Below are positions 25,078-25,311 of a stretch of 64,000 nucleotides of DNA, one piece after another; position 1 is the first letter of the stretch, and each line of letters opens with the position of its first letter. The notes under the pieces were generated by a model. That model did not search any database. It was given only the letters and a program-made list of their open reading frames with translations, and had not been told where the DNA came from. The position numbers and the translations under genes were made by a program. Origin of the DNA: Eledone cirrhosa. Its lineage: Eukaryota. The stretch spans positions 344,100,001 to 344,164,000 of the forward strand of contig OZ024741.1 in assembly GCA_964016885.1 (NCBI GenBank), in the 5' to 3' direction.

Positions 25078-25110
25078 AGTGACGAATCCGCTATAATTCA
25101 TCCTTATATA
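25078..25110 (-). promoter_or_regulatory. Putative viral VP promoter: TATATAA box and Inr-like TCACT abutting the ATG
   Basis: Minus-strand TATATAAG begins at 25110, about 30 nt upstream of TCACT-ATG (ATG at 25077). Confidence 0.55.
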
Positions 25111-25173
25111 TTCTTTTATTAACAAATTTGGAACAACATCGATGGCATCGACTGAAAATACTAGATGGGGCAC

Positions 25174-25311
25174 CTCTTACGCCATTGATATCAATGGTCA
25201 CCATTGATTCTCGAAGTAGTCGTATTGTCGCGTTTTATTATATTTCATTATAAGCGATAAGGAGACGAATGAGAGAATCAATGGTGACCATTGATATCAA
25301 TGGCGTAAGAG
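25174..25311. repeat. Putative parvoviral terminal hairpin
   Basis: Perfect 39-bp inverted repeat (25174-25212 / 25273-25311) containing the palindrome CCATTGATATCAATGG and reiterated CCATTGAT, around a 60-nt imperfectly self-complementary centre. Confidence 0.75.

Follow-up and report, generated by a model that had tools for sequence, protein, structure and literature searches.

What was the genome of a parvovirus like, when the part of it preserved in a host chromosome is a hairpin with a capsid gene (VP) starting just behind it? The question is raised by a stretch of 64,000 nucleotides from Eledone cirrhosa (contig OZ024741.1, positions 344,100,001 to 344,164,000; here called the window, and numbered from its first letter). 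A preliminary description, made from the letters alone, had taken the hairpin for a viral telomere and proposed that the virus was either ambisense or carried VP on a segment of its own.

A broken capsid gene

Positions 23525-25311 are a broken endogenous parvovirus fragment, with the hairpin at the insert edge, upstream of the capsid gene (Table 1). The identification of the gene downstream of the hairpin as a parvovirus VP, already made from the letters, is confirmed by the family profile and by the relatives discussed below, according to which it is a PLA2-bearing VP1 starting at this ATG. Its largest open piece shows 45% identity to P0002, a relative of 608 aa (E=2.6e-60), has an atlas score of 0.95 to parvovirus capsid clusters, and contains a second in-frame ATG at 24711 and a glycine run at 24649-24669; its partial PLA2 gives a Pfam match (PF08398, E=0.004) below the cut-off. 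The window copy represents residues 13-520 of P0002 in four pieces, is without the last ~90 residues of the intact relatives, and has shifted frame at least four times (between 25070 and 25010, at ~24950, at ~24090-24065 and at ~23900-23860, counting the frame of the ATG).

The window yielded no second piece of VP, and there was no Parvo_NS1 match in the 157 reading frames scanned there (drawn from the 417 non-repetitive frames of at least 45 aa plus a few others; 150 of those scanned were all the frames near the insert and the longer ones elsewhere). Single-sequence searches of the PDB with two window pieces gave chance matches only, and a word-indexed homologue search with the read-through of 23983-24957, a query whose last ~30 residues are in the wrong frame, gave nothing.

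Table 1. The viral insert and its flanks, in window positions
Feature	Position	Strand	Remarks
Host hAT-type transposon relic (flank)	22400..23524	+	DUF4371, E=1.6e-07; adjoins the cut viral end
Last capsid piece	23525..23861	-	Matches residues 400-520 of 608 of P0002; cut at 23525
Middle capsid piece	23900..24067	-	Another frame; matches P0002 residues 330-381
Largest open piece, 287 aa	24097..24957	-	PLA2 catalytic helices and N-terminal half of the capsid jelly-roll
VP1-unique piece with PLA2 calcium-binding loop	24944..25012	-	Other frame than the ATG; tblastn and family profile
VP1 start codon	25075..25077	-	Followed by Pro-Pro, as in relatives
Initiator-like TCACT	25078..25082	-	From sequence and spacing; A at 25080 is the predicted start site
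TATA box, TATATAA	25104..25110	-	33 nt upstream of the VP1 ATG; from sequence
Spacer from hairpin to TATA box, 63 nt	25111..25173	-	25132-25178 kept in another VP-linked copy
Inner hairpin arm	25174..25212	.	Three CCATTGAT, at 25182, 25190 and 25201
Hairpin centre, 60 nt, imperfectly paired	25213..25272	.	Candidate flip/flop region; 17/30 pairs
Outer hairpin arm	25273..25311	.	Perfect complement of 25174-25212; stops at the viral insert edge
Very high-copy host repeat, AATGAAA-type array (flank)	25313..25591	.	Depth 4,376-8,034 at 25320-25329

The hairpin and the edges of the insert

The features first read from the letters (a perfect 39-bp inverted repeat with a nested palindrome, a reiterated motif and an imperfect 60-nt centre) are all present, and the folding that had been suggested as a check gave a minus-strand structure of -47.2 kcal/mol (z -14.5), equalled in stability by none of 200 shuffles. 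The whole measures 138 nt, and 17 of the 30 positions of the centre form Watson-Crick pairs in register. For the palindrome CCATTGATATCAATGG, the sites at 25182 and 25288 are the only ones in the 64-kb window, even when up to three mismatches are allowed; nor does the window contain a second copy of the hairpin. The 8-mer CCATTGAT is present three times in each arm in alternating orientation, the three units of the inner arm forming two overlapping palindromes; the arms hold six of its seven occurrences in the window, and any 8-mer at all was present three times in only 18 of 200,000 shuffled arms. These repeats are candidate NS1-binding sites, and the hairpin as a whole may be described as low in GC and I-shaped, with alternating 8-mers.

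Where does the viral sequence stop? Four read runs were used over 22400-25350, three of them from one sample, which may be that from which the window derives; the fourth, a RAD-seq run from another individual and study, is without coverage of the window copy and is uninformative on it. Contigs that span the hAT relic into VP (23473-24557) establish the insert as chromosomal, host-flanked and decayed. The relic itself, with a depth of 320-860, breaks off in a loose end at 23524, beyond which its other copies extend; since that continuation is absent from the window, host DNA must have been lost or rearranged at the 23525 junction, and the missing viral part is therefore uninformative on genome layout. 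At the other edge, the loose ends of the host repeat start at 25311-25316 and the outer hairpin arm stops at 25311, so that the end of the hairpin is the end of the viral insert.

Could the hairpin belong to the host instead, as a MITE or some other palindrome that by chance abuts the insert? Perfect inverted repeats are frequent in the window (13 further pairs are listed with arms of at least 25 bp, some of them nested and seven longer than 39 bp), so what sets this one apart is where it lies and what it is linked to, not the repeat as such. A high-copy MITE with target-site duplications, named at the outset as the finding that would tell against a viral telomere, was looked for and rejected: hairpin depth is 7-26 (15, 26 and 7 for the bin of inner arm and centre in the three runs of the one sample, with 2-8 for the window copy's own contigs) against hundreds to thousands for the neighbouring repeats, and no target-site duplication is present, the two flanks being unrelated. 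Read depth is not copy number, but the gap between hairpin and repeats is still one to three orders of magnitude. As there is moreover no second copy in the window and no Rfam match near its gathering score, and as the hairpin is linked to VP in a diverged copy (see below), the host-palindrome reading is largely refuted and we regard it as highly improbable. (Two Rfam matches to plant microRNA hairpins lay far below gathering scores and were discarded.)

Long perfect inverted repeats with arms of 44-138 bp lie at 7889-8454, 21823-21981, 29341-29690, 30520-30633, 44544-45057 and 48054-48315, two of them without a spacer; they are probably host fold-back elements or local duplications. The window also contains a non-LTR retrotransposon at 58402-61311 (+), in which two long frames encode endonuclease, reverse transcriptase and a C-terminal PHD finger, retroelement relics at 49488-52952 (-; endonuclease/RT/zf-RVT) and 27279-29358 (+; RT), and at 19950-20240 (+) a GIY-YIG piece that suggests a Penelope-like element.

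Diverged copies of the same viral end

Contigs differing from the window number up to seven at 23603 and five at 24283, one of them with 35 differences in 174 nt, from which it follows that the sample holds several diverged VP copies. In one such contig (depth 2.71/7.96/10.4) VP could be matched only in short patches (ending at 24812, and at 24886-24933), and the same contig matches the hairpin at 25184-25245 with one listed difference, on the same strand, in the same order and with the centre in the same orientation. Another (depth 8.8/7.12/8.85) joins 24955-25004 to 25132-25178. With the hairpin ~98% identical and the VP next to it for the most part below the 80% threshold, these sequences suggest that viruses which had conserved this end integrated separately, rather than that an insert was copied afterwards. 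Because the hairpin is flush with the insert edge, is of low depth and accompanies VP in a second, diverged copy too, its identification as a viral terminus is very likely right, and it is most likely the viral telomere.

All the linked copies come from one sample, and for none of them is the separation of the joined pieces given, so that NS could lie between hairpin and VP; against a long gap speaks the size of the longest pieces listed for these runs, 1.1-1.2 kb. (Low read depth was considered as a sign of short spacing in the other copies, and was abandoned because contigs that are long and free of errors at a depth of 2 suggest that the reads were long.) In the RAD-seq individual, three reads with one start cover 24182-24280 and show at 24229 a variant common to related VP copies, a weak hint of a sister insert common within the species. 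The hairpin patterns had no match in viral contigs or metagenome contigs, in which no related locus was found either.

A predicted promoter just inboard of the hairpin

On the minus strand the inner arm ends 96 nt from the ATG (25077-25075), almost exactly the distance of about 97 nt first given, and the TATATAA and TCACT reported between them are indeed there, leaving no room for NS1. The A of TCACT is 30 nt from the TATA box, the usual TATA-to-start spacing, in a context resembling the initiator consensus, and 3 nt from the ATG. Does this TATA box belong to VP? All eight alignment rows that reach a VP1 start begin with MPP, as does the window ATG, and both relatives in which an MPP start is preceded by an in-frame extension (P0075 and P0033) have upstream peptides compatible with a TATAWAW at -34 relative to the ATG, and one of them with another at -85 (the window TATA is at -33). 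With a background of 0.46% per offset, and bearing in mind that back-translated peptides show compatibility only, this agreement indicates that the TATA box is part of the VP gene. A third, distant protein with an upstream extension allows no TATAWAW.

In 11 of the 12 relatives examined, the VP1-unique region is without an internal in-frame Met, which is consistent with a second start downstream of PLA2 (at 24711 in the window). Simple leaky scanning has against it that, in this decayed copy, a ribosome passing the VP1 ATG would meet three out-of-frame ATGs before the next in-frame one.

Relatives of the capsid protein

A full protein scan gave 47 clusters (at 50% identity) with E<=0.001, the best being P0002; two (P0010 and P0046), with long low-complexity matches, were left out of later work. 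The most distant matches rest mainly on PLA2, and most of the clusters make up one family, the intact members of which have 606-621 aa. Among the 30 clusters looked up, only two members are named, Octopus vulgaris CAI9735766.1 and Acanthosepion pharaonis CAE1320483.1; the cephalopod relatives, these two together with numerous unnamed Logan proteins, have ~42-45% identity to the window copy over most of the 287-aa piece and are annotated merely as hypothetical or PLA2-like. In the tree, the window copy is on a branch of its own (0.82 changes per column; placement 82/82). PF08398 is above its cut-off in all five intact relatives, and Pfam finds PLA2 only there; the same five proteins gave no match to PF02336 (Denso_VP4) at E<=1, and none to PF00740, VP1_2 or AdSDV_VP1. 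Fused forms of 1085-3095 aa were sought and none was found, which is weak evidence, and motif scans gave 24 loci, none of which matched the family profile.

The contigs that carry these proteins are of particular interest for genome size. Full-length VP1 is found on contigs of 4470 nt (P0002), 4409 nt (P0075), 3807 nt (P0076) and 3354-4078 nt (the P0074 cluster), and those of a fifth cluster (P0077) have 2080 and 2557 nt; in a near-full-length VP cluster, five of the seven members are on contigs of 3725-3746 nt. In four of the five full-length clusters about 2-2.6 kb is left beyond VP1, the size of an NS cassette. Spare contig DNA need not be NS, however, since the VP segment of AdSDV carries extra ORFs. 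Moreover, members of one cluster are probably alleles of one insert, and a broken VP copy has equally tight contig sizes (3202-3244 nt in 7 of 14), which weakens contig sizes as evidence of layout. The contigs of P0009 and P0016 both have 2841 nt. The seven full-length VP1 proteins of the P0074 cluster (P0074 and P0083-P0088), which differ by 1-6 residues and have in common a 4-residue gap in a conserved stretch, would seem, on their sequences, to be alleles of a single young insert whose capsid frame is still open.

Three further observations concern the margins of the family. P0011, P0014 and P0019 form a subclade (starred in the tree), of which the members with an N-terminus have a VP1 with ~80-100 more residues before PLA2, and the contigs of two of the three, with 4581 and 4902 nt, are the longest. 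P0032, a PLA2-bearing protein of 436 aa from a 2530-nt NCBI record, has a weak AdSDV_VP1 match (E=0.006, below cut-off); it is possibly a capsid-only molecule, distant from the cephalopod VP family. Finally, a parvovirus-like PLA2 motif was noticed in a 261-aa protein (L001:3941-4726) beside a helicase-like gene on a 17-kb viral contig; this protein is not of the present capsid family.

A capsid fold nearer to monosense lineages?

P0002, as a natural relative, was modelled with AlphaFold from an alignment of 29 rows (pLDDT 53.8). In structural comparison its first 20 ranks were all parvovirus capsids (Z 9.3-15.5; the next match had 5.6): 11 Parvovirinae rows had Z 13.2-15.5, a chapparvovirus 14.1 and BmDV1 13.2, with GmDV at 9.9 (rank 18), AdSDV at 9.6 and AdDV at 9.3 (rank 20). 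Structural identity to the best Parvovirinae matches was 9-15%. Foldseek on the PDB agreed in placing Parvovirinae best; in BFVD, unclassified Parvoviridae and Parvovirinae led, and ambisense densoviruses were also found (E 1e-12 to 1e-9), and by atlas features the clusters bearing Denso_VP4 and the VP1_2 clusters score alike (0.95). Since longer alignments raise Z, and since confidence in the model is modest, we speak of a lean: the predicted capsid seems nearer to monosense lineages (Parvovirinae, chapparvovirus, BmDV1) than to GmDV and AdDV, and to that extent the monosense-like character first noticed in its motifs is upheld.

Ambisense, segmented or otherwise?

We favour, with a probability of about 0.6, a one-piece ambisense genome of ~4-4.5 kb with the capsid gene transcribed inward from a promoter adjacent to the end, because intact relatives in four of the five clusters are on 3.8-4.5-kb contigs with room for NS; as no NS1 was found in the window or in any relative, this layout is one that we infer. 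In such a genome the hairpin would prime rolling-hairpin replication, with NS1 binding the CCATTGAT repeats; the TATA/initiator promoter 63 nt inboard would give an mRNA with a leader of ~3 nt, from which the first ATG would yield the PLA2-bearing VP1 and the ATG at 24711 the major VP; and the NS gene would be on the other strand beyond the end of VP, lost here with the capsid tail at the 23525 junction. Against an ambisense genome stand the cluster on 2080- and 2557-nt contigs, the out-of-frame ATGs and the monosense-like predicted capsid. The original alternative of an ambisense or a segmented genome is thus retained as such, with the contigs of four of the five clusters leaning to the former.

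Were the genome segmented, the hairpin would be the telomere of a capsid-only segment, replicated in trans by the NS1 of another, as in AdSDV. This would account for a hairpin directly upstream of VP with no NS beside any copy, for a hairpin that hardly differs in a copy whose VP can be aligned in patches only (as one would expect if segments share their ends) and for the one full-length VP1 cluster on 2.0-2.6-kb contigs, and the lean of the modelled capsid to monosense lineages would also be in keeping with it. Yet full-length VP1 is on 3.8-4.5-kb contigs in four of the five clusters, the absence of NS here is uninformative with the insert cut inside VP, no AdSDV_VP1 match was found by Pfam in the five intact relatives, and AdSDV is the only segmented parvovirus that we found in the parts of the literature searched. 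We consider a segmented genome unlikely, and equally unlikely its fuller version, a second and independently evolved segmented lineage in which Parvovirinae-like, PLA2-bearing VP1 segments with a shared and nearly invariant telomere were replicated in trans and entered octopus and cuttlefish germlines many times. Rather more doubtful is a monosense parvovirus that lost NS, either as a defective genome before integration or by deletion afterwards, so that its left hairpin was brought to the VP promoter. In its favour, the capsid model has its nearest matches in monosense Parvovirinae, a chapparvovirus and BmDV1, contigs of 4-4.5 kb would fit a monosense genome equally well (the hairpin-VP spacing of the other copies not being given), and in some Parvovirinae the capsid promoter is at the end of the NS gene (according to sections of PMC6521121); but a clean deletion within the 63-nt spacer would be required that left nothing of NS behind, VP1-unique sequence and terminal region are found joined on single contigs in two further diverged copies (the longest pieces listed for these runs having 1.1-1.2 kb), and the geometry matches that of ambisense ends. 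A one-piece monosense genome of reversed order, with capsid first and NS second on the same strand, would fit everything observed in the window and the contig sizes as well. It has no precedent in the literature examined, however, and NS, which is needed first, would be without a terminal promoter; this arrangement we find barely credible.

Placement and significance

We found no cephalopod parvovirus described in the open-access literature searched, main texts being the scope of that search. A 2016 survey of parvovirus-related sequences across animals may list molluscs. The word octopus does not occur in the portions of PMC11357303 and PMC6631224 that were available, nor any mollusc term in those of PMC7737747 and PMC6631224. 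Because parvovirus classification rests on NS1 (PMC13426907, in its available part) and no NS1 sequence was found, we assign no subfamily; nevertheless, the insert likely represents an undescribed cephalopod-associated parvovirus lineage, which combines an ambidensovirus-like end with a capsid that fails the Denso_VP4 test.

The preserved end shows how this lineage likely drove its capsid gene. If the genome was ambisense, a terminal VP promoter was paired with a capsid nearer to monosense lineages, and either this layout evolved more than once or lineages exchanged capsids, which bears on the origin of vertebrate parvoviruses; if it was segmented, this would be a second bipartite parvovirus lineage. 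Ambisense genomes outside Densovirinae, and an insert with a terminal repeat, are already known (from passages in PMC9896142 and PMC12297876, respectively).

Comparison with known parvoviruses

The unclassified Parvoviridae obtained from bird swabs (the "dark matter" of the family) include, in the part of the account available, 17 genomes that are monosense or ambisense (PMC9896142). Several of the top BFVD matches of the modelled capsid are unclassified Parvoviridae species, a likeness at the level of fold only (11-16% identity) with proteins that may not be among those 17.

With Parvovirinae (AAV, bocavirus, PARV4, H-1 and B19 giving the best structural matches) the cephalopod family shares, as far as the model goes, the fold and the succession of PLA2 and then a glycine run after the second Met. 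Parvovirinae are monosense with NS upstream of VP (from excerpts of PMC12297876), for which there is no room here, and the named relatives have cephalopods as hosts.

AdSDV has two 3.3-kb segments with termini identical between them, T-shaped hairpins of 208 and 220 nt, a 378-aa VP without PLA2 and a separate downstream ORF for PLA2 (parts of PMC10267136). The cephalopod viruses would resemble it in transcribing VP, according to our prediction, from near a terminal hairpin and in having termini shared between molecules, and differ in uniting PLA2 and capsid in one VP1 ORF of 606-621 aa (Z 9.6).

From ambisense densoviruses, finally, the present family is distinguished by the lack of a Denso_VP4 match, by Z values of 9.9 (GmDV) and 9.3 (AdDV), by the I-shaped, low-GC hairpin of the window copy with its alternating 8-mers, and by there being no NS seen. 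It is to the ends of these viruses that the insert is most readily compared: they drive VP from a promoter at the terminal repeat (as passages of PMC6521121 and PMC12297876 describe), and AdMADV has a hairpin of 113 nt with TATA boxes at 193-199 and 4747-4753 of its 4,945 nt (PMC3820778), beside the 138 nt of the window hairpin and a TATA box starting at position 202. In MpDV the start sites are 7-8 nt before an ATG (excerpts of PMC11642819), and an insert is known from whitefly in which the terminal repeat is almost complete (excerpts of PMC12297876). A terminal hairpin (100-140 nt) followed closely on its inner side by a TATA box, as in AdMADV, GmDV and Bemisia tabaci ambidensovirus (here with a predicted VP promoter), PLA2 at the N-terminus of VP1 and a transcription start (here again predicted) a few nt before the ATG are features that the insert in E. 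cirrhosa has in common with the published ambisense densoviruses, so far as those accounts extend.
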